A DNA stretch of 64,000 nt from Candidatus Omnitrophota bacterium (GTDB lineage Bacteria > Omnitrophota > Gorgyraeia > Zapsychrales > Fredricksoniimonadaceae): assembly GCA_903908245.1 (NCBI GenBank), contig CAIVRE010000008.1:1432-65431 (forward strand), written 5' to 3'. The notes beneath the pieces were generated by a model. It was not told the DNA's origin, did not search any database, and saw only the letters and a program-made list of their open reading frames with translations. How positions within the stretch are numbered: position 1 is the first letter of the stretch; each line of letters starts with the position of its first letter. Shown here in pieces: positions 36,001 through 60,000 of the stretch. The position numbers were made by a program, and so were the translations under genes.

Positions 36001-39000
36001 CGCACGGAGCATATCATCACCTGCCAACGCCTGAGGATCGACCATCATGGCCAACTTACCACCAACCGTAGCCTCTTCCACCTGCTGACGGGTCTCTTCT
36101 GTAACATCTTCGGGCAACCCGACCATCATTCCCGTATTAGCAATGGTCACAACTTTATCGCTGGCATTGCGCGTAACATATACAACACGACGACTCGGCT
36201 CATTATCCTTAGATTTATATTCAATAACACTGCTGACCGTAACCACAATGCGATCTTGCTCAAAAGAAACCGGCGACTTAACAACATGACTGACACTTGC
36301 CGTAGTTGTTAAGCCTGAAACCGCTGTGGCGGAATTATTATCATTGGCCGAAGCAATACCAGCTCCGGCGAACAACACCACCGCAACGATAATGACAATG
36401 ACCGCCCTCCTGATCGGGGAGATGACGGCCGAAAGAGCGGCCAGGGCGATGCGAACAAAGTGCATCGGGGCGGGCACTAATGCCTTTTGACCCTGGCCAG
36501 TGACCATGGCGGAGATACCGCCAATGATCTGGGTGACGAACCCTAAATTTTTATTGTTGGGATTATTGGTATCAGATATACGGCCGGAGAGCTCCGCCGA
36601 CACACCTTCTCCGGTGATGTTCGTTCCCTTGGCGGAACAAACTCCCGGATGCTCGCTATTCTTGCCTGAAGCGTTTGAGGTAAGTCTATCTACAGGGCCC
36701 TGACCGACACTTTCCACACCCTTCACACCTGGCACACCCTGCGCGGAGTAGGCTCTGTTATCGTAACCAGTTCCCACACTTTCCACACCCTGGGCATTGC
36801 CGTAATCGCGAGGAGCCCTTGCTCTGTCCAGAGATCCGGCAGGCACACTCATCACGATCCTGGTGTTACTTCCTACACTCTCGGTATTCGCGCTGTCTTT
36901 ATTACCAGCGATCACACTCCGTGCATAGGTGGTGCCAACGATCACACTACGGGCACCCTTACTTTCATTGCTAGTCCGCGCGTTGCCATTACTGGCAGTC
37001 GCAGTTCCTTCATCAGCGGCAGCACCAGGCACACTTTGGGCATCCGTACTGGACACACCTGTGTCGGTACCCCTGTCAGAGCGGGTAATCCTGGCCGACG
37101 GACGAACCCCGCGGTTCAACTTCAGGGCGAGCCCATTGACCGCTCTTAACACTCTCTCCACCGCGGGCACAATACTGGCACCCTTGGCAAGACCAATGTT
37201 CAGAGCCCTTCTATTCAGAGCCTTACCGATCCCGGCCGCATACCCCAAGATGGCGGCAAACACCAGGACAACACCAGTACGACCCGCAGAACGATGCAAC
37301 GGTACTTCATCGACAGTAACCGCACCGATCACGGCACGGGTATTCGCTACCTTACTCGTATTCGCTACTGTACTACCATTGCCCTTGGCGTGATTGTCAG
37401 CATTCGAACGGTCAGCCAGGACATTAGCCCGCTCGTTGCCTTTACTGTTATTATTACCAGCCTTCACCAGCGCTTTAGCGCCATTCACTACACCCTTACG
37501 AACTGCATTCACAACACTACGAACTACCTTCACTGCATTGCTGCGAACTGCATTCACTGCATTAACAGTACGTACAACCTTACTTGTATTCGCTACTGTA
37601 CTACCATTGCCCTGCTCTTTGTTCTCAGCATCGGTGCCAGCGGTCAGAGCTAGCGCTACATCGACGCTCTTTTCAGCGTTGCGATCATTTAACTTCACCT
37701 CGGCAACCGGCCTGCCGTTGGCCTTAAGCACAACATTAACAGTATCACTACTATCTCTCTTGCCATTCTCGACCGCTCCGCCCCTGAGAGAGGGACTGCG
37801 GCCGGGCTTACGACCTCCATCGCCGGAACGAGACGCAAGTTCCGAATCGGACGGCCCTTTCAGCCGTCCGGCAAAATATCTGGCCCCAAGAACAGCCAAA
37901 GCAAGTACCACACCAAAGACGATCACAGGCAGAGCCCCGGCTCCACCAGCCGCGGCTCCGGCACCCGTTGCCGCTGAAGCCGTATTCGGCGTTAAGGTAA
38001 AGAGAAGCCCCATCAAGCCCATTCCACCTGCTATAGGCCCGGCGCCGGGCAATTGAGGCCCTTGAGGCACTACAGGCATCGCAGGCACAACCGGTGCTGG
38101 CGCAGGCCCTGGTGTCGGTGTAGGCCCGGGTGTTGGCGTTGGCGGTAACGATGTATTAGGAATTGTATTATTGCCTGTAGGCGGAGGCGGCGTATTGAGC
38201 GGATCCGCCTTGGCCGGAGCATCGCCTTCATCCTTAGGCTTCTGCTCATTAGCCTTCAACAAGTCAGGGATATTAACTTCCATCGTAGAATTAGCCGCGA
38301 CCTGTCCAGTCTGGACATTCCCGGCCCTGAACCGATTGATCGCCCTTCTAATGAATCCGGGTTTAGCCGGGGCAGTAGCTTTCTCGAGGCCACTCTGGAC
38401 ATAATAATCGTGTTCTGCCTGCTTTTGCTCGGCTGTTAAAGCCTCGGCCTGAGCAAGAACATCAGAGACAAACTGTTCATCCGCCTGGTACGGAGTGCCG
38501 CCCATAGAATCTGTTACGATCTGCAGGGCCTTACGGACAGTATCCTGATCAGGCTGTTTCTGATCCTCAGCCAGCAGGCCAAAGAACTCAGCCTGCCGGA
38601 CCATGATCGCGGTCAACTTCGGAATATCCCCGGCATTCTTTGTGCTATCCAGGCCAAGCAGACGGATACCAATGGGCTTGAGCAGGATCGGGGCCATCAG
38701 ATCAGCCGGGATCTCGATCTCAAAGGACCGGGCCGCCTGCACCCCGGGATATTCCTTAATATCAAAGGCCGGAACAGTGACCTTGCGGCCATCAACATCC
38801 GCCCTCACGTCGCCATTATCGCCCCTGGAGAAGGCCGCACGGACAGACTGACGGTCATCCCCTTTAAGGATAACGACCAGGCCGATCTCCTCACCCTGCT
38901 CCTGCGCAAAACGGATCAGAATATCGCCCTTGACCAGGCCCAGAGACGGCACATCTTCGGCAATACGCTGTTCCTGAAGGTATTTTTCGCTATCTTTAAC

Positions 39001-42000
39001 ATTCACCAAAAGCTGAACCTTGACCTGCTCTCCGCCAATAGTCTCGGTCTGAATATCACGCGCCGCTACACCATCCTTCACCTCAAGGCGTTCGGTCTTG
39101 TTCCTGCCATCGGTAACCGCGATACCCGTGACCGTACGGTCCTTCACCTCAAAGGCGCCATTAATATCCTTGGGCGCGGTAGCAGCAGGAGCATAGATCA
39201 GGCCGGTTTTGGTCTCATAGGTTTCGCCGGGCTGCAATGTAATGCCGTTATGCTCAACAGGCTTGTCAGCGGTATTATTAACAGCCTTGACCTCTTCTGT
39301 CCCGATCTGGCCGGACTTGTTAAGAATGGTCTGGACCGCCAAAGGCTTGCCCTTGGCCCCGTTGGCCTTCTGATAAGTGACCGCGAGCAGGCTGTCCGGC
39401 CTTGACCCGGCGAACTGCCCAGGCACACGGTCAGCCGGCGTGATCCGGTTGAACACTTTAACGAAATCTTTAAGGTTATCCGCGTGCATAAGATCCGCCG
39501 GGCCGGGCTCTTTCACATCGACCGCGCCAGGCTCGAACGCGAACACGTCAGCCAGAGGCACCGTTGCCGTCAGCTTTTTCGCGGCTTCCTCGGGCATATT
39601 CTTGTCGGCCAGCGCCGCCAGCACGATCGCCTGCATACCGCGCACCATCATGTCGATCGCATTCTGGTAATACTCGCGCATCCTGACAACGCCGCCATCC
39701 ATCACCAGATGATGCAGTTCATACATATCCAGGCTTAACTGATCGGCCTTCTGGCGCATCATTGTGCGGATATCGACAGGGATGGTCTCATCCGCCAGGA
39801 ACGGCTCGAAGACCCTCTTGCCGAACGCGATCAGGTCGTTGGAACGGGATGTCCCGGCGATCTCGCGGTCGAATTCCTGTTCATTGATATCGATCGTGCC
39901 TGCAATATATTTTCCAAAGCTCGTACCGGACGGAATATTGACCGCCAGGACAAATTTATCGATCGGCGTCTCCGTCAGCCGGCCACTCACCTTGACACCG
40001 CGGCTGCGGCCAAGCCCCTGGTCGATCTCGGTATGCGTTGACTTGGTGTCCGCCAGGACCACTAACACATCACCGCTCTTGGTATCGACCGTTTCACCAC
40101 GGATACGGCCCCTGGAAAGAACCACAAGATAACGGCGAGTCGTATCCGCCAGGATCCCGGCCAGAGCTTCAGGCGCGATCTTTGCGTAAGTCCCGTCAGG
40201 CAGGACAAAATAATCATCACCCTCGGGCTTCTCAAGGATCACGCCCATATTATTGCCCGCGGCAACTTCAGCCAGCCGGGCCAGATAAAGGTCTTCGGAA
40301 GAACCTGTTTCTCCAGGCTCGCGGGCCGCCAGCGGAATGACCACATTGCCCGAAGAACCCTTGACCAGTTCATCAAGCTTGCTCATTCCATCAGCTATAC
40401 TGCCGGTAAGGATCGTCCGGCCTTCATCCACAGGATTATCTTTATCCGTCCCGAACATCTTGCGCGACGGCGGCTCAATAGCGGTCAAAGGCTTGGCACC
40501 GTAGAACATGTTCTGTTCCCCGGCAATAAATTCCGTCAAACTACCCGACGCCAGGATGACCGGGCGCTTGGCCAGGGCGAACTGCCGGATGACTTCATCG
40601 CCCCGCACACGCTCACCCTCGATCTGATGCTCGATATCAGCCAAATTAAGCTGCGCGAGTTTGCGGCCTTGCTGTTCAGCGGCCTTGCGAAGCACAAGTG
40701 TTTGCGCCACGATCAGCCACGGGTCAGAGGTAACAACGCCGGGAGAGACCACGCCGTAAGAGTTCACCAGATAAACTTTTTTGCCATCCGCGCTAAGGGC
40801 GATCTCGCCTTCCTTATACATGGCCATGGCTTCCACCACCGCCTGCATATACGCAATGGCCTTGCGCCCGCCGTTCTTGGTGTCGCCACGGATCTCTTCG
40901 ATGGTCATGCCGCTAAAACGCTTGAGCAGAAGATCCTGGGCTTTCTGGCTGACAGCAATACGGATCTGATCCGGCGTGCGGGTCTGCACATCGGCGATCT
41001 GCTCGATCCCAAGCTCGTTGATCGCGGCCTCGATCCCCTGGATAATATCGCCATTAACCTTGCCATGCGCCTTGCCGGCGGTATTAAGGTCAGGATCGGA
41101 AGAAAGCTCGTCGTCATACAACGCGGACCTGGACATCAGCGCGTCCCACGCGGCTTTTGCCGGCGGATGATCCTTGGCCAGGCCGATCAGGGTCTGGATA
41201 TCTTTATTGTCGATCAGAAGGATGTGGTTCTCATCAATGGTCTTTTTAACCTGGTCAATATTCTTGCCATCCGGGCGAACACTGACCTGGGCCACACGTA
41301 AATTCGGGTCATACGCCCTGGCATATTCCGTAACCTCATTGAGGTTCTGGACCATCAACTTGGGCGAATGCAACCGCACCACCAGCTTGCCGTCAGGATC
41401 GTTCTTCCTGTGATCCGCGGCCATGGCAACCACCGCCACCGAGCTCTTACCGGCACCTGTACCGATCTTGGCGATCCAGACACCGGCCTGCTTGAGCGCC
41501 GCAGCGATCTTGCCACTGGCGAACAATTCATTGAAAAGAGTCTGCTCACCCTTGCGCAATACTTTCTTATTCGCGACCAGGACCTGCTCAAAGGAAGACT
41601 GCGCGGCATCAAAGCCGGGGAAGCTCAGCTGAACCGGCTTTTTGACTTCAGGCGCACTCGGCTGTTCCGACACGATCCGCATGGGCGGAGCCACCATCGG
41701 CGTAATCGCCGGAACAACAGGGACGACAGGAACAGCTGGCGGCATAACCCGAACGGGCGAAGGCAGCGGGACAGCCGGGACATTCCTCGGCGTCCTGACC
41801 GGAACAAAGCTGTTCACAACCCGCATGACACTGGCCTGTTGACTTAAAATAAAGGATCGGGACGATCCCGCGAATCTCCTGTTAAGGATGCCCTGGACAT
41901 ATCCCGAAAGGCTGTAAATATCTTTGGGAGCCTTGGCCATAGCCTCGCCAACGGTAAAGAGCGCAGGCTCAATATTGCTCCATTCAGAATTCTTGCGGGC

Positions 42001-45000
42001 CGCGAGGATCTTCCGGCCAAGGTCATTCGCTTCGGCAGCGGTCAATGCCGCGGCGTCAGCATCATTCTTGTCCGTATCATCAGACCGGGCCCAGGAAGGA
42101 AGATGCGGAGCGGTATCCGGATTGCCAGACAGGAAATTATAGAAGGCCTTCCACGAAGCCACCATGCTGCCCGCCATGACCAGCCCGGGATGTTTGCCCA
42201 CTGCCTCAGCGTCCCTGCTGGCAGGCTGAACGATCTCCACCGTTTTCTTTTCATCGGGACGAAGAGCCGCCAGCGACTTGAACAATAAGACGGAAGGCGC
42301 CTTGATAATATAATCGACAGCCTTCTTCACCGGCGAAGGAACGACCGGCACGGTAGCATTGGCCGGCGTAACGCGGGTGGACCACTCGGGGACATTGTAT
42401 TTCTTGAGCTTTTGCGCATCGATCGCGGCCGGAGCAGCTTTGACACTGCCGGTGTCTTCAAAGAAATTCTTACCCTGAGAGCCATCATTCAAAGGAACCT
42501 CGGCAACAACAGGCGCGGCTACCGGCGCAACGGCACCAACAACGGCTTTATGCTGCAGAGCGGCAGACTCGGCCTTGGCAACAGCTTTGGCATCATTCCA
42601 GGGATTCTGGGCGTTATAAGCCTCGGCCGTAACTTCGGGCCTGCCGCCTTCACGCAGATTCTTAAGGTTACGGATCTTGGCAAGAAGGGCCAGTTTCGCA
42701 TCGGTGCTAAGGGTACCGTTAAGCGTGCCGTCATGGAGCTCCTGACGCATTCTGTCAAGCGCCTTGACCTGGCCAACATGCGCTTCCACCTTCTTGGGTT
42801 CGGCGCGTTTAAAGTTCTTCGAATAGAGATCGTCGTAATTCGCATTGGTGGTCTTGATCCAGATCTCGCCCTTCTGGTCAATGTAAACCTTGAGCTGACG
42901 GCCTTCCCACATTCCAAGCCAGGCCTGGAACTTGGCCGTACGGGCCTCGATCGCCGCGGCATTACCGGCATTGGCCTTAATGAACACCCGGACTTCGACC
43001 AGCTGGCTATAGAGCGCATCATTAAGCTCGACCATCTTGAGCACGCGGCCAGAAGCGGCAAGTTCACCATTAACTCCGGCCCAGGCATCCGCAACCTCTT
43101 TCGGCCATTTGCCCGTGCCGAACTTGAAGTTGAGCGTATCCTCAATACCCTTGCGCTGAAGTTCAGCTTTATTCTTGCTATGCTTAAAGGCCTGGATCGC
43201 CTTAACGGCCACAGCCGAGGTAAGCTCGACAGGCTTGATCATCGCCTTCACATCCTGCGGGACAGCTTCAACAAAGATATTGCTTAAGAACCATGTCCAG
43301 AACCCGTCCGGGTTCCCCTTGTACTTCGTATTCAGCGCCCAATCGACCCAAGTGGTCTGACTCGCGTCCTGTTGAGAGCTGGATGAAACCTTGAAGCAGG
43401 AACCGACCTTCTCGGATGGATCGGCCTTATCGGCCTTACGGTCAAGCGCCGGTAAATTCAACTGCTCTATTCTAAATTTATTGATCTTCCAGTCAGGGAA
43501 CCTGGCAAGATGCGCAAGGACCTCAGGATCGGCCGTACCGCCATTAATAGCGCTGACCAGCGATGGCATCGAATAATGCTGCAAAAGAAGTTCAGGTACC
43601 GAGTACACCGGCGCCGGGCCCGGCACAGGACGGTTGATCTCCGGCTTGACGAACGGTGTTGCCCCCTCAATGACCGCGGCACGATCGGCTTCATTGGAAG
43701 GCGTCAATTCCGCTTTATCTTTCTCAACCTTGGCGGCCTGGATACCGGCAAGGCGCATCAGAATACGATTGAAACGCTCAATAACACGCTTGACCAGGTC
43801 ATCGGACGCAATAATATTGCTCTTAGATCCCAGGCGATCTCTTACCGCATCCGATTTAATAAGCGCTGCAACCAAAGGCTTTAATTCATCCGCCCCCTTG
43901 CCTTTAAACATTTCAAGATTGCGATCGATCATCTCCTGGGTAATGATCTTAACGTCTTTCTGATCAAATTCCGGAGCATCTTCGTCGTTGAGCGCCGCTA
44001 AAGTTTGCGGCGCAACAGGCGGCGTGATCACAGGTACCGCAGGAGCCTGAGCGACCACCGAAGTAACCGCCGGAATAACTGATGCCATGGGCTGATTAAC
44101 AACAGGTGTTGGTGTTGTCGTAACTGTAATAGATGAAGTAGATGTTGTGGGCAGAGCAACAGGAGCGGGTGCAGTGCTAGCTGGGCCAACCGGCGCCACT
44201 TGGTTAATATTAGATGTAGATGTTTTTCCTTGTACGATATCAAGCACATCTTGAACCTTCTTCGCAATGTCTGGAGGAGGACCAGCGCCAGCCAGTATCG
44301 GAGCGGAGGCCTTACTCTTCATTGCATCCTTATTATCTTTCACTTCAAGCCCCTGCCCCTGCGGAACAGTACCAGGAAGCTCCTGCTCAGCCGGAACCCC
44401 GAAATTCTTAAGCACACCCGATTGCATATTCTTCACTGTTGAATCGATCTGAGTTGCAATAAAATCGGTAAACGACTGCTCCTGCCCGCTCAAAGCTTTA
44501 ATATCGCCATCCTTGCCCAATGTGACTGAGCGCTTCGCAGCAACAGATGTATATGTGATCGTACCATCCGCATTATCTTTTCTTGTAAAAGCCTCATCCG
44601 CAAAAATTGCCGCCACATGACGATACAACGTAGCGCTATCAGCAACTTTTAACCTCTGCAAGTCAGTCGGCGTCAACGGATCGCTAAAAACAAGCTCCTG
44701 CCCGGGCTGAGTCGCCTTCTTGAGCAACGTCACACGTTCACCAACATACGGCTTGGCGAGGCCAAGGATCATCTGAACCACCGGTTTGTCACTCCACAGA
44801 TCGCCTTTCATGCGATCCTCAGACAAAGACGTCAACAGACTCGCCAAAGGAATGGACATCTCCAGTTGGCCGATCGTACCTGCCAGCATTGTCTTGAGAT
44901 TTTCCGTATATTTACCATCTGCCTGCTGCGGCATCATCAAAACCACCTGCGGATTCTCCTTCTCGCCCATCGGGAGGGTCACGGTAACCTGAACAGGACT

Positions 45001-48000
45001 TTTGCTGTCTGTCGCCGTCCCAATTTTTACAAGTGATCCGCTCTTATCAGAAACAAGCGCATCGTAAACTAACTTCAAGGCCGTCATATCCATACGGCCG
45101 ATATAAAGCGAACGATGCGCAACCTGATAACTGGCATCTCTTAAAGCCGTTTCGCGACCCGCGCCCATCCGGGAAGCACTTTCCAATTTGCCATCAAAAG
45201 AACCTGAATCGCCCACCAATTCACGCATATGAGCAAGCACCTCTTCAACCGCATTCTCAAGGAAATAAATACCGGTGAACATACTGCCTAACTTTTGACC
45301 GGGATCCTGCACACGGACCTGAGTATCAAACAATAATGAGCGTCCCTTGGTCAAACGGGTCAAACTATGGACATCCAATTCATGCGGGAGAACACCCGCC
45401 TCGAGGAACGTATGGGCGTACACTTCATTAAGGAAGACCTCAACACCCAAACGGATCGATGTATCATCTGCCAACGCCGCACTTGCCTTCTTGGTCAATT
45501 CCGGATCAATAATGATCTTTTTATGATTCTTGTGCTCATTCAACCGTTCAATGAACTGATAGCGTTTAAACTTCTGCACATCCGCCAGGGAAACATTCTC
45601 GCCGCCCTTGTTAGAAGCTTCAATTTTCGCTCTTAATCCGGCGTAATCAGCTTTTTCCTGATCATTCAAATCAACGATGCTTTCAACATCCAAAGAACCA
45701 TCTTTAAACTTGATACCACGATCCTTACCCAACAAATTCTCTCCGGCCGCGCGTATCATTGTTGTCAACTTCTCCCGGGCGGCTTCAAGCGGCATTTCCT
45801 GATCCATCTTGCCTTTTAAATTTTTATAAACTTTCTCAAGCATCCCCTCATCAGCACCACGAAGAGCCCCGAACCCGGCATTAATTTCCTGCTTGCGCCC
45901 AAGCAATTCTTTCTGCGCTGCCGATAACTCGGCAAGTTTCTCCCCTGCGGCCTTCCCGACCTTCTCCATATCCTGCATATCACTTGCTTCCAAAGAAAGG
46001 GTCGTCCGCAGCCAATCCAATTTCTTTTGATTTTCTTTAATGATCGCTTCAGCCGACTGCCCCGCTGCAATAAGTTTCGCCACTTTCTTCGTACTATCCA
46101 ATGAATCACTAATATCCTTTGCCATCTTTTCATACTGCGCCATCACCTGTTGATACGGATCGATCTTCCCAATAGCTGCCTTAAAAGCATCAAAATTAAT
46201 AAAGGCCTTCCGCTCTTCATTCTTAACAGAGAAGATCATGCCACGAGTATCAGAATCAAACCATCCAGTCATCTTTAACGCATTCCAGATCGAACGATCA
46301 AAATCTTTAGAAAACTCCTGCATCTGCAGAACGCCATCACGGCTTATCATCTGGGCCAAACGATTGACCTCATACATTTCCGAAGATACCAACGCCGGGC
46401 GGGTCTCTCCCGGAATATACATCAAATGACCAACAAGGCTGTTATCCACAAGATTACGAACGGCACCATCTTTGATATCGATCTTGTGTACCATTGGGTC
46501 AAACTTGAACGCGCCGGAAGCATTTTCAACGATCTTATGATACTCAAGGCCACTGCTTGTACTTAAGGTAGCAAAAGCCGCAGTATTATTTCCAGCGGAC
46601 GGATTAAAAAGAACATTATTCTGCACATTCCACACCATCCCGCGCGGAATGATCAAGCCGCCACCGAGCTGAATGTTCCCATTAAGGGCTTCATAATAAA
46701 CTGGCTCAAAATCCTGGATCTTGTAAACCGTTTTTCCGTCTTGATCCTGTTCAACAATATACCGCGGCGCATAACCGACACGGCGGGAATTCTGCCCCTC
46801 GGTCCTCGCCACGATCGGGCGCTGATCCAAAGCATTATTGATCGTCTTGCCCGTCCGCTCCAAATAAGCAGACAAAATCTCGTTCCTGGAGGCCTTTTCC
46901 ATCGTAGCCAAAGAACCTTCCACACGAGCACGCTGCACTCCTGAAGATACCTGGGCAACCGACACAACAGACTGCGTTAAAGCTTCCTGGGAATGCTGTG
47001 CAGCAATAGAACTGAATTCAGTCACAACTTGCTCAAAAGCCGTTTTGTACGCATCAGAACTCTTATAATCCCCACCCTTTGCTCTGATCGCATCTAATTG
47101 ACTGACCGCATCCTTCAGCATGGTTCTTTGCCCAGTGGTCAAATTAACATCCAATGCGCTAGCCACAAAGAAGTCCATTGTCCCAGGTGTACGCTCATCA
47201 ATAACTTGCGGCACCAATCCAATACGGGTCGGCTGTTGAACAATACCCGTACTATCAAGGACCGCTGTCCCAATAATATGCGCCAAACCGCGGACTTCCA
47301 CCGAGACGCCTTCAACAAAATCTCCCAGAAGAATGCGATGCGTCAAATTCACACGATCCGTCTCCCCATCCCTTTCTGCCTCTAAATAATTCGTTAACCC
47401 TGTTGAAACTTCCTCACCCTTCTCTGTCGTAAAATCCTTAACCCTCTCTTTACCAGATGCCAGCAATGTATCAAAGTTCCATTTAGTCCGGATCTCGTCA
47501 AATGCCACGCGAACTTTTCCGCCATCTTTTGCATTATAAATCTTATCCCAAAGAACATCTCTTTGTGCGCCTTTCTCCATCCATGCATCACGAATTTTCT
47601 TATCCCCAACCAATTTTACAACTTCATTCTTGATCGCATTCTGCAGCAACTCAGGATTCGTCTGAAGTAACTTATATACAGCATCACGGAATAAAGAATC
47701 ATGGCTGGAAACAAGGATCGTATTGGCACGTGCGTAAACCGGCTCAGTATTCAAAGGATCAAGAACCTTTGTTACCACATCATCACTAAACCACCTCTCC
47801 AAATATGTGATCGTATCTGCCTTTACTTTCTGTTCTAATTGTTCGCCGGATAATGATCCCTCAGCCTTGGCATTATTCCTATCTCTAACCCCCTGTTGAA
47901 ACTCATTGGCAATAGTTTTCACATCCCATTGACGCGCAATACCATACGCGATACGACCCACAATGTCCTGCGCCGCGCCGGAACGATCCTTGGCTGAACT

Positions 48001-51000
48001 GATAAAAAAGTTCGTTTTATCTTTATTAATCGAAATGTGCTTGGCAAATTCAACCGGATCAGAGAACCGGGCGATCTTAAAGCCCGACGCATGTAAAGTA
48101 TTATTAATATCCTTGGCTGTACCGGTCATACCAAGAACCTGGTCAAAGAAGTCAATGGCATTGGCTGCGCTCATTCGATCAGAAACGCTCCCCATGGCCT
48201 GCTGAAGAATAGAAGCCTCTTTATCAACCTTTATGCGCTGCGCATCCGGCATTTCCCACATCAAATGAGACAAGGCCATCAACGCACGCGCATTTAATCC
48301 CGTAGGATCACTAAAAATATTATTATCCATATATTTATCGCGCGACTTATCTTTGACCGCGTACTTTACAATTCCGGTGGCCTCATCAAAACTGACCCTA
48401 TATCGTTCACCGATCGTGCCGATCTGATCCAAAGACCAAGCCGCCTCATTAAGCAACTCCCGCAACTGAGATCTTGATAATGCACTCTCTACCCCGTCGA
48501 TCTTTGAAACTTTTTTCCATAATGCTTCAAATGCCTCTGGGGTAAACTGTTTTCGATCAGAAACCTCAGAACCGCCCGCTGTCTTATATGTTTCGATCTG
48601 ATCTTTAAGTTTTGAAGCGATGTCCTTTTCTCCAGGCTTGATCTCAAAATGGCTAGTAACAACTTCCCAAACCTTCCCTGCGATCTCGCCTCTCTGACTA
48701 TAACGCTCCAGCATGCCGGGCATCAAAGCAGACATGATCTCTTTATTGCTGCTTCCCTGGTCGGTAACACGCTCAGGAGCTAAATAAACCCGGTGGAACT
48801 CATCCATCACCGCGGTCACGCCCTCAAAATAATTTGCCGCCGACCCGTTCCTCGACGCATGAACCGCATAATCCTGCACATCAAGAAGTTTAAGGACCCT
48901 GACCTCCCCATCCTTGAATGCCTCAACCTCAACCTTATCACCAGACCGGGTTGCTTCGCGAAACAACCCGCCAAACTTCTTATTCATTGCACCCATTACC
49001 TCATGACTATCAACATTGGCCCAAGCCTTATAAAGGTCATCACTGGTAGCGACCAGGGCTACTTTCTTTCCCGTAGCGGCCAACACCCCGGCCATGGCCA
49101 CAGCAATAGTCGATTTACCACCACCAACGAACTGGTCCCACATCATACGACCGCTCTTACCGAATGCCGTCTGAAAGAATCCATAAATAGCCGCCGCTTG
49201 TTCTTCACGAATATCGAATCTCTTCCCATTAGAGGTCCTCACATCTTTAAGAATACCCAAAACCATCTTTGTCGCGACTTCCGCACGTTCATTAATATCT
49301 TTAATATCATTGAGTTTTTTTATGTCTGCACGCGTTCTCGGAATAGTCAACACTTCAGCGATCGTTGAACTCTGATCAGCAATTGAGTCTTTATTAATTT
49401 TTAACAACCTGTTCAGATCCTGCGCGATCTTCCTCCCTGAAGAGAAAATATCGCTCGAAAACGTCTTAATATCGCTTTCAAGATCTTTATCTGAACCAGG
49501 ATTCTTCCGCCCCTGTTCTGCCTTTACTGCCGCCGTCCTACGACTCGACTCAAAATCCGCCCCATAGAACGGCAATTTCCCGCCTAAGGCATTGCTTTCA
49601 CGTAAAGCGCGTGTCCAGGGAGATGAGCCCATCCCGGGATCATTACGAAGAGCTTTAGCACTATCAGATATGGCTGTTGGTTTAGAAGAGGATTTATCAA
49701 TGGAAACTTCGGCGGGAGAACCTTTCCCAGTCGGAGGTGCTTGAGGCTTAAGAGCTGTCTCAAGCTTGAGCATTGCCTGACGAACATTATTGAATTGCGC
49801 ATCAGAGCCAAGGGAACCAGCCAATTCACGCAATCCCCCAACCAGGTCTGTTGCAGGAGCACTTAAGCCCTTCTTGCCGTTGATCATTTCCGTTGCCTTC
49901 GCTAAAAATTCCCCAAGGCCGGAACGAATACCAATATCATCCCCATTCAATTTTCCCTGCTCTATAGAAACAGCCTCACGCATGGCATCAAACGCTTGCG
50001 CAAATGTCGCACGATCACCTAAAGATTCATACGCCCGAAGCTCCAAAAGCTTCGCTTCCAGCATATTGACAAGCTTTGGCTGATCCTTGCTTTCGCCTTG
50101 CTTATTATTCTGAACTTTCAGGATAGTCTGAACCTGTTCTGCTGCCTTACCAAAATCCCCGCTTCTCTGCAAGGCCTGAACATAGTCCATGCGTAATCCG
50201 ATATCACTAAAACCATTAATACCTTTATTGCCCTTATCACTTAGATCATTGCGGTTTTCCTTCGCGGCTAACGCATCCAATTTAACCGCCTTCTCAAGCA
50301 GCTTAACCGCTTTATTGATCTTCCCGCCTTCAAGCGCCTCGACCCCCTGCTGCCGCACCTGCGCCGCTTCCAACATAGTACGCAACGTCTTAATATCCGT
50401 CTTTAAATTCTCCAGGCTTTCCGCACCATTATCCGCATCTTTCACCCTGGACGATTCTTTAGCAAGAAAAGATTCCAATGACTTGATAACAGAAGCTACC
50501 TCTGCGAAATCTGCGGAAGCGTCCAGCCTCTCGGTTCCCCGCTCACTGATCCGGGTAAGCCTGACAGCCGCGATATTCTTTAAAAGATCCGAATTATTCG
50601 GATTCATTACCTTCGCCAATTCCAAAAGATCAACAGCCCTGGTCGTCTGCTGCGACTGCGCCGAAGCCCGTGCATTCTCTAATAAATGATTGTACCCATT
50701 CTCTCCAAGAACAAGTTCTCTCATGGATGCCAGAACAAAACGAGTCTCCTTCGGTGCGCGATCGTATAAATTATCCACAATATCAAGCATGGATCTCGCA
50801 TGCCCCACTTGAGCTTTTACCGACTCAGCGAATTTATCCATGTCGAAAGACACCGTGCCCTTATCATCAGCCTTATACTCCGTTGCCAGAACAGTCTTGG
50901 ATGCTATATCATTAACCCATGCCTTCCGTGCCTGCGCTACTTCTGCTGCAATAGTCTTCCTGGCACCAACCGAAACGCCTCCCTGCTGATCTAATAAATG

Positions 51001-54000
51001 CTCTATGATCGCATTCTCTAATTTTTCAACTGTCTGATGCTCTCTTTTCAATGCATTAAGTGTATCCTGATCAATCAATTTACGCGTAACAAACTCACCA
51101 TACGCCCCCTCAAGCCCATCGCTGATAATTTTTCTAATAGGCGATTCCGCCCCCGCATCCTTACCACCTACTGTTGTAGTCAAATTATCCACAAGAAGAG
51201 AACCATTGTTCTTTAAATGCGAGGTAACTTCACTGATAGTGCTATCGAGCAATTCATGATATCTTGTCCACTCCCCATGATCCGCCGGCTGAACCCTTTC
51301 AGCACTACTAAACTGCTCAATAAGTTTATTGAACTTCTCGGCATCGATCGTTCTCAAAGGACGAACCTTGTCATAAAAACTCAACGTGTCCCTCGCCCGA
51401 TCAACCATCCGCTCCAAGCGTCCGGCACTTCCCTCTGAAGCTGTTAAAGTATCCGCAACCGCCTTACGAAGTTTCTCCGCAACCTGCGCAGCAGCACCCC
51501 CCTTAAACTCCAGGGCATAATCGTTAAGGTCCCGCGTAAGCCTGTCCAGATCGCTTCCTCGAGAAGCAGACTTTAACTGTGCCTTGGCGATATCCGCCCG
51601 CCCGATCTCCTGCAAACGCCCTTGAGCCAAGGCGCTATTGTTTGATGATTGTGCCACTTCCTGATGAAGCGCTTCAACTTCAGCATCAGTTCCGGATTTT
51701 TTGGAATCCCGAACCAATTCTCTCACATTCTGACTGCGCTCTTTACTGCCCTTGATAGCAGTTTCTAAGAATCTTGCTAATTCCGCTTTCTTTTGCTCAA
51801 GTCTTTTCTGGAACATCCCGACCTTGCTGAATTTTGTTAAGGCTGCGATCTCTTGCTCAAGTTTCTTAACCTGAGCACGTTCAACCGCTGCATTAACAGC
51901 ATGATCTACAAGAAGCTTGAATTTGCCGATCTCCATCTCCACCTTTTCCCGCCGCTGTTTTAACGCAGTTGAATCGCCCATCCCATTTTCGATCTTCCAG
52001 TCAATGAGAGAAAGCTCTGTTTCAAGCGACCGGCTCCGCGCATTAGTCCTATCAGCGATCGCTAACGCCTTTTCCGTTGTCCCAGCTTTCCTGGACATTA
52101 CATTAACCAATGTGTTCCCAAGAATAAAAGCATCCCGCAGAAGTTGCGTCCGCAGTTGAGCCGCTTTCGACATCTTGTCGATCCTCACATCGAGGGTCTG
52201 CGGCGTAGCCGTAGTGCTGGCCTGTGGGGCGATCGCAACATCGCCAACCGCCTTCGCAGAATTCAACCCATCATTCAAAGCTTTATTACGAACTTCCAAA
52301 GCCGTGCGTTCCTGTAATAATTGATTCCTTTGCTCCGAAGTAACATCCGGCTTAATAAGCGCCGCATCAATGGCCACTGTTCTGGCATTATTGACAGCCA
52401 TGGTTCTCCGCGCGAAATCCTCAACACGTTTGGCCACGTTCTCTTGCAACCGGGGAGCAGACCCATCATTGGCTTCAACCGCGCTCTGAAGTTTTTGTTC
52501 TGCCCGAGCTAATCCTTCCGCCCGAACCTGAAGAGCCGCCTGGTCATGGATAAATTGAGCCTGATCAAGTGCTCCCTTGGCTTCCTGGGCCGCTGGAGAC
52601 TCCTTATCTGTTATAGATTCATAAACAGTCTTCGCTTCCGTAAGGTCACGACGAGCCATCCTGTACGCCTCAACCGGAGAGGTGGCATTATGATACGATT
52701 TCACAGCCAGCATGGGTGCATACGCCCAAACCGTTTCCTCAAGCCCAGAAGAAATAATCGTCCGGTCCTTAGGATTAAACCCTTTACCATCGATCAAATT
52801 GGACAACGACGCAAGAGACCACTTTCCAGCCTCAAGTCTTTTCTTATCTTCCTCGCTTTTTATTAGAGATTTATCTTTATACTCACCAAACATGTAATTA
52901 ACCGCCTCCTTCGTTCCCGTAACAACCAGCGGCATATAAAACATATCTCTATACGCGGCACTAGCAATAGAACCTTCAGCAAAAGGCTGTTGAATATAGC
53001 CGAAGCCCTTCTGTACGCTGCTCATCAATCCATTGCCCGGCTTCGGAGTCCCCTGTAACTGAAGGACCGCGAACAACGGAGACATCCATGCGCCCTGCCG
53101 CGGGGACATAATGGTCTCTTCTCCGAGTAAAGCCTGATGTAAATTGTCCTGGGTAAACAACGACCGCCCGTTATCAGCCATGAAAAGCGGAATATCTTTC
53201 CAGCTACGATACCCATACTTCTTAAAAGCACGCGAATCCTCTCCATCAATCGCCACTTCAATCTGCGCCGATGCGCCTTTCCAGAAAGCACCGCCACCGC
53301 CCATCATAATATTGACACCCGGCCAGCGCACTGCACCGCTGGAGGTCATATCAATAAGCCCTTTCTCGGCACCAGGGTTGGAATAGAACCCCTTAAGTGT
53401 ATTCATGTTTGTCATCCCGAGACCTTTCAAGATCCGCAAAGACAACATCGCAGCGCCAGCACCTGCAATAGCATCTGTTACCCCACGCCCCACAGTATAA
53501 TTCTTACGATCATTGTAATATTCATACCCGACCTTTAACCCCGCGCCTGCCAATCCAGTCGCGGTATATTTGACCCAAGTAGGCGTTTTGGAAAGAGCGC
53601 TCACAAAGCTGTTATTAAAAAGTCTGCTCCCCGAAGCATACGTGGCGGCAGCACCAGCTCCGACAAAAACCGTTCCCCATACTGCCCCGGTCTTAAGGCC
53701 TTCTTTATAATCTTGCGCCATCGCCGAATCAAAAGTATCTGTTTCCAATCTTCCTCTGGAAGCCGTTCCGGTCACAGCGTATGTTTGACCAAAAACAAGC
53801 GCCTCCGAACCGATCGACCTTGCCGTACGCTGAGCAATATTAATAGCCCTTCCCCATGTCATAGCGCCTCCTTCTAACGCACTAGCAGGCGCGATCGCTT
53901 TTGCTAACGGATATGAAGCAGCTATTCCAAGCAATTGCACATTTTGCTTCCAGGTCAATTCCCCTTTTCCATTCATTAACGATATCGCATTGGCACCACC

Positions 54001-57000
54001 GATCGAAAGAGAAGCACTCGCCGCATACTGCAGCCCAATCCTGGCAGCCGCTGTCTTGACACTACTGGCAGCACCGGAGAAAGGAACCGACAGCGCAGCA
54101 AGGGAGACAAACGCGCTTTCTTGCAAATCTAACCCGCGGCCTCTGGCCGCATAAGAAATAGCATTACCACCGATATTAAATGCCCCGATAGCTCCGACAC
54201 CACGAACCACGCCCACAGCCCATGGGTTGGCGGACATCGCTATTAACGACGTTCCTACGCCAGCTAAACGTGTTCCCTGCAAAGCATTCCCCGTGCCTGC
54301 CATAAATCTGGTTGCGAGCGAAAGATTACTGCTCCCCAGCCATCCACCCGCACGCGCCATCAATGCGCTCGAAACACCCGCCTGCAAAATATTACTAACA
54401 GAAAAATCGCCCGTTTTATTATATTTATAGATTTCTGCCGCTGTCGCAACCCCCGCGCCAAGCGCAGCGTACACCAAAACCCTTTTAGTGGCATACCTTG
54501 TCGCAATTGTCTCCGTAGCCTGAACAGCAACTCTAACCGCCACCCTAGCTGCAGTAGTCACCGATGCATGCAATGCCCCTTTAGCTGATTCAGCAGCAAG
54601 AACAGAAGTTCCCGCAGAAAAAAGAGCCGTACCCAATTCAACCGCCGTAATAACTCCATCTACCACATAAATAGCCCCCATCACTTTTGCACCGTTATTC
54701 ATCGCGTGCAACTGATCCGAGAATGCCCTGGCACTGGAATAATCATTGCGAACCAATTCATCCGCGATCCCTTTCATTTCATTACCATCAGCAAAATAAT
54801 GATTCATACGTCCGTCTTTATTCACATACCAGACCGCAATATCATTATCCCGAACTCCCATCCAAGCCTCACCCTTACTCTTCCATGCATTGATCTCTTC
54901 AGGCAATGCAGCCGTACCCGCCTTATTTGCGCCAAACACTGAATCCATCCAGTTCGACCCGGAACCACCGGACTTGCTGGATATTTTATCCATATCATTC
55001 AACCAGACCGTCTTCCCCTCACCCCACCTGTTCACAACATCCGTAGACCCTGAACCAAACATTGGATAAATATAGCGAGCCGCAAGTGAATTTCGTCCAC
55101 CGACCCAATACCCCTGATGATTTTCTATCTCGGAGGATCTTGTGATCGCAAAATCCCCTTCCGGCGTCTTAACGATCGTTGAATCTTGTAATATCCTGTC
55201 TGACTGCGCCGGATTAAGCAGCAGCTTCATGATCTTGATCGCCTCGGGAGAATATTGAGTGTCTAAAACTTTCTTGCCATCTTTCACAACCCATTGTTCT
55301 GAAACGATATCCGGCATATAAACAAATGCCTGCATCCCTATTCCACCTAACCCGCCTTGATTACGCGGAGTGATCAGCCCTTGGACCAAGCTGACCATCA
55401 AAACCTCGGAATCCCTTTCTTTCGAATACTCCGCATACGAACCAGAACCATATTTATTCCTGATCTCTGTCGGCTTGGACAGGTCATTTCCCAACGCTGA
55501 ACGCACCGCAAACTCCGTCATCTGCGAATTACCCATTCGAGGATCACGCAACAAATCGTTATAAAGAAGAAGGTTTTTATTAGAACCAACATCCATCGGC
55601 GGCATATTGGAAGGCAACGCCGGCAAAGAAGCAATCCTGTCGCCCCAAATAACAGAAGAATACGCATTATCAAAAGCCGTTGTCTGGGCGCCCACTGTAA
55701 CAGTCGTCAATTGCTGATTATCCAATTCAGACAAGAACCGGCCACCATTACGCATATCTCCGGTCTCAACATCCTGCAATAACAATCTGGATCCCGTACC
55801 ATATCCAGTTTCTACCACAACAGTACCGCGATCTTGTAAATGCCCCGCGATATTAGAGGTCACCTTTGTTGGTTTCCCATCAGTCCCAAGGACAGCAAGC
55901 TCAACATCTTTCATGGCTTGCCCATAAGGCGTTGTTGATGTCGCCGCATCACTTGTTTTCTTGGAAGACAGCAGATCTTTAAGCATCGCAGTGAACCGTG
56001 ATCCAGGCAGGTTCGCGAACAACGTTGCAGAAAAAGGAACCTCTACCAATCCTTCATTAACCACCAATCGCTCACCGACCACTTTTCCCGTCTTGCTATC
56101 GATTATCGCAACCCAACCCGGATCGCGAGAACCATACGATCGAGACCCTATCTCAAAACCTTGTCCTGAAGCCCCTAATTCTATTTTATAACTGCCATCG
56201 GCCTGAATATCCTTGGCAAGGCCTGAACGGAACTCCCCGCTAACCCGATACTGACCGGCAACACCAACAAAAGTTCCCCAGCCTTCTACATTCCTTGTTA
56301 ATTGTTTAAGACCATGTTCTGATAAAGTGCCATAAGCCGCAGGCAATCCCTGGGACAAATTAACATTAGCAAGCGTATCCGTATGCTGACTCGGCTGAAG
56401 AAGCACGGTCATAACTTTATAAATATTGGTATCCTTTACTAATGTACCTTCACCAAAAAAATCAACAAGTCCATCTTGTCTATACGTCCATCCGGCGAAA
56501 GCATCCTTAGCTCCTTCTTTCATATAAAGTTTTGAATCCTCGGAATACCACATCCCCGAACCAACTTTATCCCCTTTCCTAACGCCATCATATTTAAGGG
56601 CAAAGAAAGTGGATTGATCAAGGCCGACCGTGCTTAATGCCTCTTTCTCCTGCCTGCTCAATGAAAAATAATCAGTCCACGCTTTCTCTGCGATAGACAG
56701 CCTTTCACCAGACACCCCAGCGGTCTTAAGCTTGGCAATAAAATCCGCTTTGGTCTGCCGCGGCGCTTTATATTCGTAAGGAGCAGAACCAAAATCCGAT
56801 TTAACCGGAACACCCATATTCTGGTCTTTATTTTCCTGGCGCGCTTCATCGGCTAACAAAACAACCGATCCCTTCTTGTCCCCGGCGAACCGCAATCCAT
56901 CCGTCATGATCCACTTGCCATCACTATCAAGTCCACCTAAGTGAAATCCAAGACGGGTGACATAACTGCCTTTATCATCCAAGAGCCCTTTTTCTGATGC

Positions 57001-60000
57001 CGCAGCGTTGGGGATCGCACTCGCAAATCGAAGGTCCGCCTTATTCCCCACAGAATAAACAACCTTATCCGAACCCGCCTCGCCTGTGCCTCTGGCCGTA
57101 TAAAGAGAACGCTGCTCAAAATCCGCCTGAAGGCGGCGCTGTTTTCCTGCTTGATCAGCATCCGCGATCGCAGACTCTTTAAGTGCAAACTCGGGCCCCT
57201 TGCTCTTCTCTTGTGTCGAGCCCTGACCGGTCTTTTTATGCGGTGTCACATCTGAATAAGACCCGTTAGTCTTCCCATCGGATACCGCCATGATCAAACT
57301 CTCTCCTAAGAAAGCAACATCTTCTGACTGCCCCAATGGACCAGACGCAAGCTTACGCCAAGTCGGAGAGAACATATTAAATGCCAACTCGTTCTTAACT
57401 TCCCCTGTAACGACCCCATTCTCCATCTTGGCACCCTTGGCATATTCCTTAACCCCGCCACGGGCAAGAACATTCGTCCTGGAATCATCAGCAAAAACAA
57501 CAATGCCATCCTTATATTCCAACATGGCCTTACGAATATCCCCGTCATTGATCGCAACACCTTGCGCCATCAGCCCGTTGGTTGAAACATATGATTGCAA
57601 TGGGCCGCTCAAATTATTTATATTAGTAAAAAGCTCCGCGATCTGCTGTTTCTTGGTTTCCGGGTTCCAATTGGCTTCCTTCAAATAAAGCACCATATTC
57701 TGCTTACTACCGGACACAGCATCGGGCAGGGTAACAAACTGCTTAAGAATCCCGCCGCCATTCCCTGATATCGATCTTTCCATGGCAACAGTGCTTCCAT
57801 CCATCACATATTTACCGTCCTGTACCGTAAACCCGCCCTTATATATCCCGTCCTGACGTGCCCCAGCATAATCATAAAGCAATAAAGGAGACGACCAAAT
57901 AACCCCTCTCCCCGATACTGATTTACTTCCTGTGGCAATTCCATCCTGCTGTTGGGGAATAATATTGGTAATAGCCTGCGTTGCCGCCGTTCCTTCGTTA
58001 TATTTATAATGAGACCCTGTCGTCTGAAAATGGATCGGAGTGACATCTCCCGTCAACACGATCTTCCCGGCCAACGGGTTCTGACTAACGGCAAAATTAT
58101 TTAAATTATCACCGGTAAACATCAACGCGGATATCTGCTTGGCTGTCGATGAAAAAACCTTGGCATCAATCCCGGAACCATCTTCTTTTAACGCTTTTAA
58201 AGCCACCTGCTCCTGCTGCATGGTCTTAATATCCGTGTCCGAAACTCCCATCGACTTTAACGCTTCTGCAAATTTTTCCGGAGTCATCTCCCGAATAGCC
58301 TGGACAGCGATACCTCCAACACCCAAGGCCTGCCCCATCCCCGCTGTCAATCGTTGTCCTGGTTCATTGGCACTTAACACAACATGTCCAGCCTCCACTC
58401 CACTCTGACCGACCGTCGCCTCTTCTTTGACCGGAACAAATGTTCCTGCATGCGCCCCAAATATCTTCTGCCTGGATTCTTCTTCTGCGGCAGCAGCCAC
58501 AAGTTGCTGCCCTTGGGAAACCCATGCAGTGACTGCACCCATATCCGCACCAGCTTTTGTCAACTCCGTCGCTTTTATCTTTAGATCAAAAGCCTTATAA
58601 GACTTGTCTTCCGCACCCTTGCGAACTTTCTCGTCAGTTGACTCCCTATCGGCAACAACCTCTGCGTCAAGCGCCGTAGACTGCCTCATCAAGTCCTGCG
58701 CAGTTTCCGCTATGGCTGTCTTTAATATTTTCTTTTCATCATCAGAAAGAACAGCGCCGGGCTTCATGGACTTCTGGACAACTTCTGCCATCGATCCCAG
58801 ATTCTTCGCCTGCAACGACTGGACCATCATCTGTGCCGCGCTGATCGACCTCACCGGAGCGTTTGTCTTTTCCGTCCCTGAATAAACCGCAACCGCCTGA
58901 GAAAGCGGCAACGTCTTTTCACCATTACCTTCAGCTTTATACTCCCTAAGATCTGTGACTTCCTTCCCGTCAGCATCCACCGTCTTAACCGGGATCTTGC
59001 CGGATACAGAAGCGCCGTTCATCATCGGCATCCATCCATCGCCCGCCGGATCATAAAGATATTGATTGGAGCCTGTCTGATATGTTAATTTCCCAAGGCC
59101 CAATTGAGCATTATTTAAGAAAACCAGTTTTCCGCCTTTAAACAACCCATCCCTAAAATTATCCTGATTATAGCCACGCTGCATCCTGCCGGAACTGCCA
59201 TCACCGATAGTAGCCTGGCCATCAAAATAATCCACAATAGCTCTGTCTCCCGCCGTACCCGCGATAACATCTACCCTGCCCGTTTCATTAGATAGCGCCT
59301 TGCCATCGATAATATAACGCGCTCCATGATATTTATCCGTCCCGTTCACAACACTCATGCCACCCTGATTCATTCCCAAACTAAATGGCTGCGCGATATA
59401 CCCGATCGCATCCTTAACACTGGTGTCCTCAGTCCTGAGCGTTTCCGTACCATCCAAAACCGGTATATTTTCTCTGACGATCCCCCGGCCTAAACCGATC
59501 TCCGTCGCCTTCGCCCCATCAACCTTTACCTCTGCCGAACCTCCTGTATAATTCAATAATCTCCCAACAACCTGTTCTTTATCATCGAGGATCGCCCCTA
59601 TAAGATTCTTTGAATTGATGCTCAAGACAGTATCTGTACTCTTTACCCCTGACGCCGGTTCATCAGCAGAATTATCCTTCTTGGGATCAGCATCCCCTTT
59701 TGCCAACCCGAACGGCGTTGCCATAAACCACCCGGTCGTCTTGCCCTTGCCAACAAGAGGATTCGACCCTGCGAACTTGATCTGGCCATCACTTGTTACA
59801 GAAGCCTCAGCATCACTTAAGCGGCCAACAGACGAAGGATCTTTGCCCTTCTCTGTCCCATTCTCCCACCTAGACTGAGTCATTGCCGTATTTGCAAACG
59901 TTGCGTTAGGCTGAAGTCTTACATTCAAATACGGAAAATCTGCCAATGTGACCACGCCATCTTGTAAAGCGGACTGATATTTTTCCTTTACCCCAAAATT

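Follow-up and report, generated by a model that had tools for sequence, protein, structure and literature searches.

The 64,000-nucleotide stretch of a Candidatus Omnitrophota contig analyzed here (hereafter the window) is filled on its minus strand by part of a giant protein-coding frame, and we focused our attention on a nucleotide-binding module, termed motor 1, that occupies residues 4926-5625 of that frame. Motor 1 is a highly diverged superfamily 2 (SF2) ATPase, probably of the SecA lineage and one of the "divergent SecA DEAD-like domains" known from giant Omnitrophota proteins. In sequence comparisons, its first lobe is closer to SecA than to DinG or to the DEAD-box control (RhlE), at scores that lie below family thresholds, and the family label rests on this lobe only. 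A large insertion sits where SecA has its preprotein-crosslinking domain (PPXD), with no detectable signal of homology to that domain, and the second lobe appears as a generic SF2 lobe with motif V- and VI-like elements.

Motifs and relatives of motor 1

The order of elements in lobe 1 of motor 1 follows that of Escherichia coli SecA (NP_414640.1): a Q-motif, Walker A, a strand of the "GKxVxxVTxxD" type (KKVALVATSDD, directly after Walker A), Walker B, a large insertion and, finally, a GMTGTA sequence identical to that of SecA (Table 1). GGGKST and DEFH align with GEGKT and DEVD, respectively, in 15 SecA sequences. Residue numbering starts with the first codon that the window contains, so that residue i ends at window position 63999-3(i-1). 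As in canonical SecA, the second RecA-like lobe ends with the pattern HIIGT...Q...PG..F...D; besides the motifs listed in Table 1, it contains the strand NTILVSS (residue 5426), HIIGT (5574) and PGTMDFFVASALD (5605). In its motif VI-like segment, the glutamine is invariant in the alignment with SecA, and both the glutamine and the arginine are invariant in the alignment with DinG.

A first-pass annotation, made from the sequence alone, had placed a SecA-type DEAD motor at 47950-49250, an interval that spans lobe 1 only, lobe 2 being located downstream of it. Both peptides quoted there are present on the minus strand and in the same frame. The first of them, KRFDIREEQ...LYKAW, corresponds to residues 4926-4993 (window 49021-49224), while VLGMTGTAKD, which had been placed at 48100-48135, lies with a small offset at 48109-48138. 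The distance between the two, given as about 330 residues, is in fact 295 residues from the end of the first peptide, or 362 from its start.

When 1.84 billion representative proteins were scanned in full with HMMER, one relative of motor 1 was retrieved, with an E-value of 6.3e-26 and 28% identity. This protein, MBF0595135.1 (hereafter P0001), is a partial hypothetical protein of 4,542 residues from a Candidatus Omnitrophica metagenome-assembled genome, and its gene fills a contig of 13.6 kb. P0001 is collinear with the giant protein over residues 4923-8457 in five segments, which include motor 1 and a second SF2-like module further downstream. Its Walker B counterpart reads DEAH, and its motif III region reads YSTGTP, thus retaining TGT alone from GMTGTA. 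Word-indexed homologue searches returned nothing, whether the query was the single sequence or the pair alignment. No further relative came to light when GTDB genomes, JGI metagenomes, IMG/VR, plasmids and phages were scanned with degenerate patterns and tblastn, the nine degenerate-pattern matches obtained being judged to be chance.

Relationship to SecA

Several comparisons point to a SecA-like first lobe. Among 24,736 Pfam models, SecA_DEAD (PF07517) was one of the two best on motor 1 (E 0.0019, 18.0 bits), with the best-matching stretch at the GMTGTA end of the profile. To compare families on an equal footing, motor 1 was scored with a SecA model composed of 15 diverse SecA and SecA2 motors from PLSDB records, and with a control model of the same kind composed of 10 DinG-family sequences, also from PLSDB records. 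The SecA model gave P 2.6e-5 on the whole of motor 1, a score that none of 500 shuffles reached. The SecA block extending from the Q-motif to Walker B scored 7.3 bits (P 1.8e-4; 3 of 1000 shuffles), and that of motif III 15.5 bits (P 6.9e-7; no shuffle of 1000), whereas the DinG blocks scored -0.2, 2.5 and -1.8 bits, the first two being those to set against the SecA values. Moreover, when the SecA blocks of Walker A and of motif III were run over all 21,333 residues of the frame, each had its top site in motor 1. The resemblance to SecA that had been proposed from the sequence is therefore borne out as exceeding chance.

Pairwise methods are consistent with these results. BLASTP aligned motor 1 weakly to E. 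coli SecA in three segments, which are collinear and lie at Walker A, GMTGTA and HIIGT. With a two-sequence profile, hhalign found two collinear local matches to SecA (P 0.0017 and 0.0019), as compared to P 0.011 for DinG and 0.16 for RhlE; the realigned SecA path passes through all motifs, at a probability of 15% only. In a MAFFT alignment, 17 columns are invariant between motor 1 and SecA, against a mean of 8.7 (sd 2.1) after column shuffling, a test in which DinG does as well (see below).

Nevertheless, a considerable number of observations weigh against a SecA origin. The SecA_DEAD score is below the Pfam gathering cut-off of 24.6 bits and is tied with that of ResIII (E 0.0023 on motor 1; for the N-terminal piece, which spans Walker A to Walker B and covers profile positions 2-139 of 164, E is 3.5e-4), and every profile match of motor 1 stays below curated cut-offs. 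P0001 matches Pfam DEAD and ResIII, not SecA_DEAD, and its blocks do not separate SecA from DinG. For the PPXD hairpin block, the top-scoring site in the giant protein is found outside motor 1, and 301 of 500 shuffles matched the score of the insertion with a SecA PPXD model. Lobe 2 is at chance with a model of the second nucleotide-binding domain (NBD2) of SecA, and it is not significant with the DinG model either. In addition, lobe 2 does not have the arginine of the SecA GRGTD motif, which is R509 in E. coli. SecA has three arginines in motif VI (RGRSGRQGDPG), of which lobe 2 keeps one (R5592). Walker B is of the DExH type, as in the Rad3/XPD/DinG family of helicases, and not DEVD as in SecA and SecA2, to which motor 1 is about 19% identical in the alignment. 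Structure predictions were of low confidence, with a pLDDT (predicted local distance difference test) of 35.4 from the two-sequence alignment and 39.9 when 14 enterobacterial SecA rows were added; Foldseek searches with the two-sequence model returned noise alone, such as TRPM channels at E > 0.1. Finally, the domains of published giants follow C-terminal membrane anchors, unlike the present module, which comes before any hydrophobic segment and is at least 15,700 residues away from the C-terminus.

The remaining elements of a canonical SecA were looked for as well. Pfam gave no match to SecA_PP_bind (PF01043), P-loop_SecA (PF21090) or Helicase_C in motor 1. Regarding the helical scaffold and wing domains (SecA_SW, PF07516) and the SEC-C zinc finger, both of which canonical SecA has, no match was detected at E <= 10 in residues 5600-6400, or at E <= 0.01 in residues 4501-9500. 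The NCBIfam and PADLOC libraries contained no SecA-type assignment for motor 1, NCBIfam giving only a local ParA match. The outcome for what the first-pass annotation had proposed is thus divided. An SF2/DEAD-like P-loop motor with a SecA-like lobe 1 is present, but with a SecA_DEAD match that is sub-threshold and no better than that of ResIII, and with SecA_PP_bind and Helicase_C absent. Likewise, a second RecA-like lobe does follow downstream, where it had advised looking for one, but it is not recognisable as SecA NBD2, and no scaffold or wing accompanies it; and a Walker B (DEFH) is found, while the GRGTD arginine is missing and one motif VI arginine is kept.

The insertion in lobe 1 occupies the same position as the PPXD of SecA, and also as the Arch domain of XPD and DinG. 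Its best-conserved block between the giant protein and P0001, YAVKD...FSDPTG, was likened by eye to the DYIVKDGEVIIVDEHTGR hairpin of SecA (DYIVKDGE..VDEHTGR), a likeness without statistical support; as model and position tests did not support it, we retain it as a lead only. An insertion of the preprotein-crosslinking type, as had been suggested, would suit the size and place seen here, but there is no SecA_PP_bind match, and the PPXD model score is no better than that of shuffles. The spacing between motifs II and III is 226 residues in motor 1, 220 in P0001, 182 in E. coli SecA, about 210 in E. coli DinG and 31 in RhlE. The "SecA-like spacing" invoked earlier is consequently not discriminating, because DinG has the same spacing.

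A DinG-like helicase as an alternative

These similarities raise the possibility that motor 1 is a generic or DinG/XPD-like SF2 helicase or translocase, not derived from SecA, which would act on DNA or RNA and whose insertion would be an Arch-type accessory domain. We consider this somewhat unlikely. The Walker B residues (DEFH, and DEAH in P0001) resemble the DE[AG]HH of DinG, and E. coli DinG (NP_415320.1) has, as said, a motif II-III insertion of comparable length to those of motor 1 and P0001. Similarly, the motif VI sequence QQxxRI and the subsequent D-x-N-L-T-T stretch of motor 1 align with QQVGRLIRS...DKRLLTK of DinG, that is, with a QQxGRxIR-type motif VI followed by a D-x-R/N-L-x-T stretch. 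The ResIII and DEAD matches equal that of SecA_DEAD in quality, and the second SF2 module downstream faintly matches the DinG-type helicase Csf4 and slightly prefers the DinG model. In the MAFFT test, DinG gave 16 invariant columns against a column-shuffled mean of 6.1 (sd 1.8), which is at least as strong as the SecA result. Because the DinG set scores as well, most of the shared residues are those of generic SF2 motifs, and the test, being positive for both families alike, was dropped as a discriminator.

On the other hand, the full DinG model gives no match to motor 1 at E <= 100, the DinG blocks fall well behind their SecA counterparts as described above, and the hhalign match to DinG consists of 13 columns at Walker B alone. 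Neither DEAD_2 nor Helicase_C_2 was detected by Pfam. The TSAT of DinG motif III fails to align with the TGT of motor 1. Motor 1 is without any cysteine, and it therefore cannot have the four-cysteine Fe-S domain, or the cluster, of DinG. Lastly, no DNA-related domain was found near motor 1.

A further alternative is that the module is a P-loop NTPase of the SIMIBI class (ParA/MinD/ArsA-like), with the resemblance to SecA being coincidental. The P-loop, the helix and the strand that follow each other in GGGKSTIAVAMAGVLAATGKKVALVATSD match CbiA, ParA, AAA_31 and ArsA in Pfam (E 0.006-0.15), ArsA in the PDB (E 2e-4 over 35 residues) and ParA in NCBIfam (E 0.028). However, these matches span 25-35 residues only, and PDB sequence searches with the single sequence and with the profile gave such P-loop-local ArsA/ParA matches alone. 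Motor 1 (VGGGKS) lacks the lysine by which the deviant Walker A, KGGxGK[ST], is recognised, and it shows the features of SF2 in its DExH Walker B, in the TGT of motif III and in having a second lobe that contains motif VI, in line with ResIII and DEAD profiles matching over 130-150 residues. Such an origin is thus highly improbable.

Activity and possible role of motor 1

Despite the strong divergence, the residues G, G, K, D, E, H, T, G, T, Q and R of the motor 1 motifs are identical in P0001. Since these catalytic residues have been kept at 28% overall identity, motor 1 is probably an active ATPase. It has also to be considered whether the module is degenerate or repurposed, for instance as a nucleotide-dependent switch or a structural scaffold within a multi-enzyme giant, and does not translocate anything. 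Lobe 2 has lost the motif V arginine and most motif VI arginines of SecA and carries a segment of about 130 residues that P0001 does not have; no scaffold, wing or channel-binding element is detectable; the sequence is extremely diverged, with one relative in the whole set of representative proteins; and the remainder of the giant is a string of metabolic enzyme domains. Against this stands the conservation of the Walker A lysine, the Walker B aspartate and glutamate, TGT, the Q-motif glutamine and one motif VI arginine, which is the pattern expected of purifying selection on catalysis. We therefore regard a degenerate module as quite unlikely.

Motor 1 would be placed on the cytoplasmic side of the membrane, upstream of the first membrane-spanning segments, as it needs ATP and as a long stretch without hydrophobic segments precedes the first of these. 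By analogy with SecA, the inserted domain could act as a clamp on an extended polymer, most likely a polypeptide, and be moved as ATP is bound and hydrolysed in the cleft that separates the two lobes. In this way, motor 1 may assist more distal parts of the giant protein, or partner proteins, in being threaded or inserted by way of a channel in the membrane. A role in translocation is suggested by the analogy.

A second SF2 module in a shared cassette

About 2,550 residues downstream of motor 1, a second SF2-like P-loop module (motor 2) was found, which is unrelated to motor 1 in sequence and follows it in the same order in P0001. Its motifs are GTGAGKSS, LYDDE, about 190 residues, ILASGSL and then IDQGLGRSRG. 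Pfam DEAD matches it with E 1.4e-4, under the cut-off. The DinG model fits motor 2 slightly better than the SecA model does, and the Csf4 match mentioned above comes from NCBIfam. The giant protein and P0001 thus share a cassette that is nearly free of cysteine and is composed of motor 1, about 2,550 residues without Pfam match (E <= 0.01), motor 2, a proline-rich linker and the first membrane segments.

This arrangement also allows another view, namely that the cassette represents an undescribed SF2 lineage that did not arise from SecA, the likeness in GMTGTA and Walker A being convergent or ancestral to SF2, and that the two motors cooperate, either in a machine that serves the giant polypeptide in cis or as a pair directed at nucleic acid. 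We hold this to be unlikely, and a SecA-derived motor 1 continues to be our preferred interpretation.

Within the collinear part, residues 2030-2095 of P0001 (nucleotides of about 6088-6285) contain a zincin-like HELGH motif with a weak match to Peptidase_M48 (E 0.1). The corresponding position of the giant (window 45310-45504, residues 6166-6230) reads HELDVH, without the metal-binding motif.

Table 1. Position in the window of the giant reading frame, of motor 1 and its elements, and of motor 2, with the basis for each.
Feature	Window position	Strand	Basis
Giant protein open reading frame	1..63999	-	Six-frame scan; in-frame Pfam domains GDE_C, PEP-utilizers_C and others
Motor 1, two-lobed SF2 ATPase (probable SecA lineage), residues 4926-5625	47125..49224	-	Sub-cut-off Pfam SecA_DEAD and ResIII; 28-29% identity to P0001; collinear SecA alignment
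Q-motif-like KRFDIREEQ, upstream of the P-loop	49198..49224	-	Q4934 invariant against SecA (18-sequence alignment) and against DinG
Walker A (motif I) GGGKST, residues 4959-4964	49108..49125	-	G, G, K invariant against SecA and DinG
Walker B (motif II) DEFH, residues 5066-5069	48793..48804	-	D, E invariant against SecA; D, E, H against DinG
Lobe 1 insertion, about 205-220 residues, between motifs II and III	48175..48792	-	Motif spacing; without Pfam assignment
YAVKD-(11 residues)-FSDPTG, residues 5213-5234	48298..48363	-	Best-conserved insertion block between giant and P0001; Y, T, G invariant (SecA alignment)
Motif III GMTGTA, residues 5290-5295	48115..48132	-	Identical to SecA motif; SecA block model 15.5 bits
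Lobe 2 (second RecA-like domain), residues 5426-5625	47125..47724	-	P0001 alignment; collinear hhalign match to SecA NBD2
Motif V-like GDFVEGVSV, residues 5559-5567	47299..47325	-	Generic SF2 type; assigned by eye; P0001 TDVVEGISV
Motif VI-like QQPTRIG, residues 5588-5594	47218..47238	-	Q5588, R5592 conserved; P0001 QQYARIR
Motor 2, second SF2-like P-loop module, residues about 7490-8010	39970..41532	-	Sub-cut-off Pfam DEAD; collinear high-scoring segment pair with P0001

The giant reading frame

A six-frame scan showed the window to be filled by one stop-free frame of 21,333 codons, which runs off the window at both ends, so that neither end of the gene is inside. Strong in-frame Pfam domains located elsewhere in it indicate that this is a real, very long coding sequence: GDE_C (amylo-alpha-1,6-glucosidase) was matched with E 1.9e-81 and PEP-utilizers_C (PEP, phosphoenolpyruvate) with E 1.6e-29, and Alpha-amylase, DUF218 and DUF1152 are also in frame. 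Metallophos, at residues of about 13590-13715, barely meets the Pfam cut-off, and the score of HATPase_c is slightly under it. A run of enzyme domains extends over window 5500-20499 (residues 14501-19500), comprising GDE_C, alpha-amylase, PEP-utilising mobile and PEP-binding domains, DUF1152, DUF218 and HATPase_c, and the enzyme domains of the giant alternate with hydrophobic segments. A crude Kyte-Doolittle scan identified 26 hydrophobic windows at residues 7152-21032, several of them overlapping, which amount to about 19 distinct regions; the first hydrophobic segment of the frame is at residue 7152, and the first strongly hydrophobic one at residue 8688.

The composition of the frame is not uniform. 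Guanine-plus-cytosine (GC) content at the third codon position is about 0.46-0.49 for residues 1-6600, as compared to 0.61-0.74 for most of residues 7000-21333, with a return to about 0.49-0.52 at residues 8600-9400, while GC at the second position is almost flat. The transition occurs inside the single reading frame, at about window 42500-44500. An assembly chimera at this point was considered and rejected, since P0001 is collinear with the giant across the shift; the P0001 gene is also heterogeneous in GC, in the opposite sense. Cysteine is unevenly distributed too: residues 1-6867 (window 43398-63999) contain just two, adjacent to each other (residues 621-622), and the remaining 14,466 residues contain 65. 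Residues 623-6867, with motor 1 and its flanks, are thus devoid of cysteine. Opposite the GC-rich part, the plus strand carries long antisense open reading frames (up to 778 residues from a start codon), e.g., at 7489-9825, 17698-19965 and 24418-26313, which are most simply explained as by-products of the composition of the coding strand.

Comparison with published giant proteins

West-Roberts et al. (2023, bioRxiv 10.1101/2023.11.21.568195) reported divergent SecA DEAD domains, without scaffold and wing, in the majority of giant Omnitrophota genes. These domains form a long-branched clade apart from housekeeping SecA, are located after C-terminal membrane anchors, and led those authors to propose possible self-export. 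More recently, a cluster of 20 proteins with a PF07517 architecture was described among 916 long proteins (Nielsen and Lui 2026, preprint 10.64898/2026.06.07.730766). Our findings agree with this picture in that an internal SF2 motor with a SecA-like lobe 1 is embedded in a protein of more than 20,000 residues with many hydrophobic segments, in that no scaffold or wing was detected in motor 1, and in that its sole relative comes from an Omnitrophota metagenome-assembled genome; the proposal of self-export would apply to it equally. Furthermore, in the "Archaeovorin" type of giant, PPDK_N and HATPase_c are frequent, and glycogen-synthase-like glycosyltransferase and pyruvate-diphosphate kinase domains occur (West-Roberts et al. 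2023); the giant described here similarly combines glycogen-related, PEP-utilising and HATPase_c domains.

There are also clear differences. The divergent SecA_DEAD and SecA preprotein-binding domains of published giants were identified by Pfam, whereas motor 1 does not reach the gathering cut-off and no SecA_PP_bind can be recognised in its insertion. Its location, as noted above, is upstream of the hydrophobic segments and far from the C-terminus, and a second SF2 module is conserved along with it. Compared to a free SecA of 900 residues, motor 1 differs in being embedded in a giant polypeptide.

Outside Omnitrophota, an embedded SecA motor was noticed in WP_135842960.1 from Legionella geestiana, a protein of 2,947 residues annotated as "hypothetical protein" and encoded at 453-9296 of the 13.8-kb plasmid NZ_CP041715.1. 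It resembles the giant in carrying a SecA-type motor inside a much larger protein that is not a housekeeping SecA. However, it differs in having clear SecA_DEAD (E 1.2e-25) and P-loop_SecA matches, in being at least seven times shorter, and in its location on a proteobacterial plasmid. It was rejected as an intermediate sequence, as it has no detectable similarity to motor 1.

Significance

The idea that giant proteins carry SecA-like motors and may export themselves, which the first-pass annotation also raised, was already published in 2023 by West-Roberts et al.; what is particular to the present case is the extreme divergence of motor 1, its position upstream of the hydrophobic segments and the conserved second SF2 module. 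Motor 1 is a defined fragment (residues of about 4900-5650), and by itself it does not open a new question. Nevertheless, how proteins of tens of thousands of residues are synthesized, folded and inserted into membranes is a puzzle to which built-in SecA-like motors are the main published clue. In this context, motor 1 shows how far the divergence of such modules can extend: it has fallen under Pfam detection, it has a single relative, and it has lost the lobe 2 signatures and the scaffold of SecA. As motor 1 falls below Pfam detection, domain censuses based on Pfam thresholds will undercount such modules.

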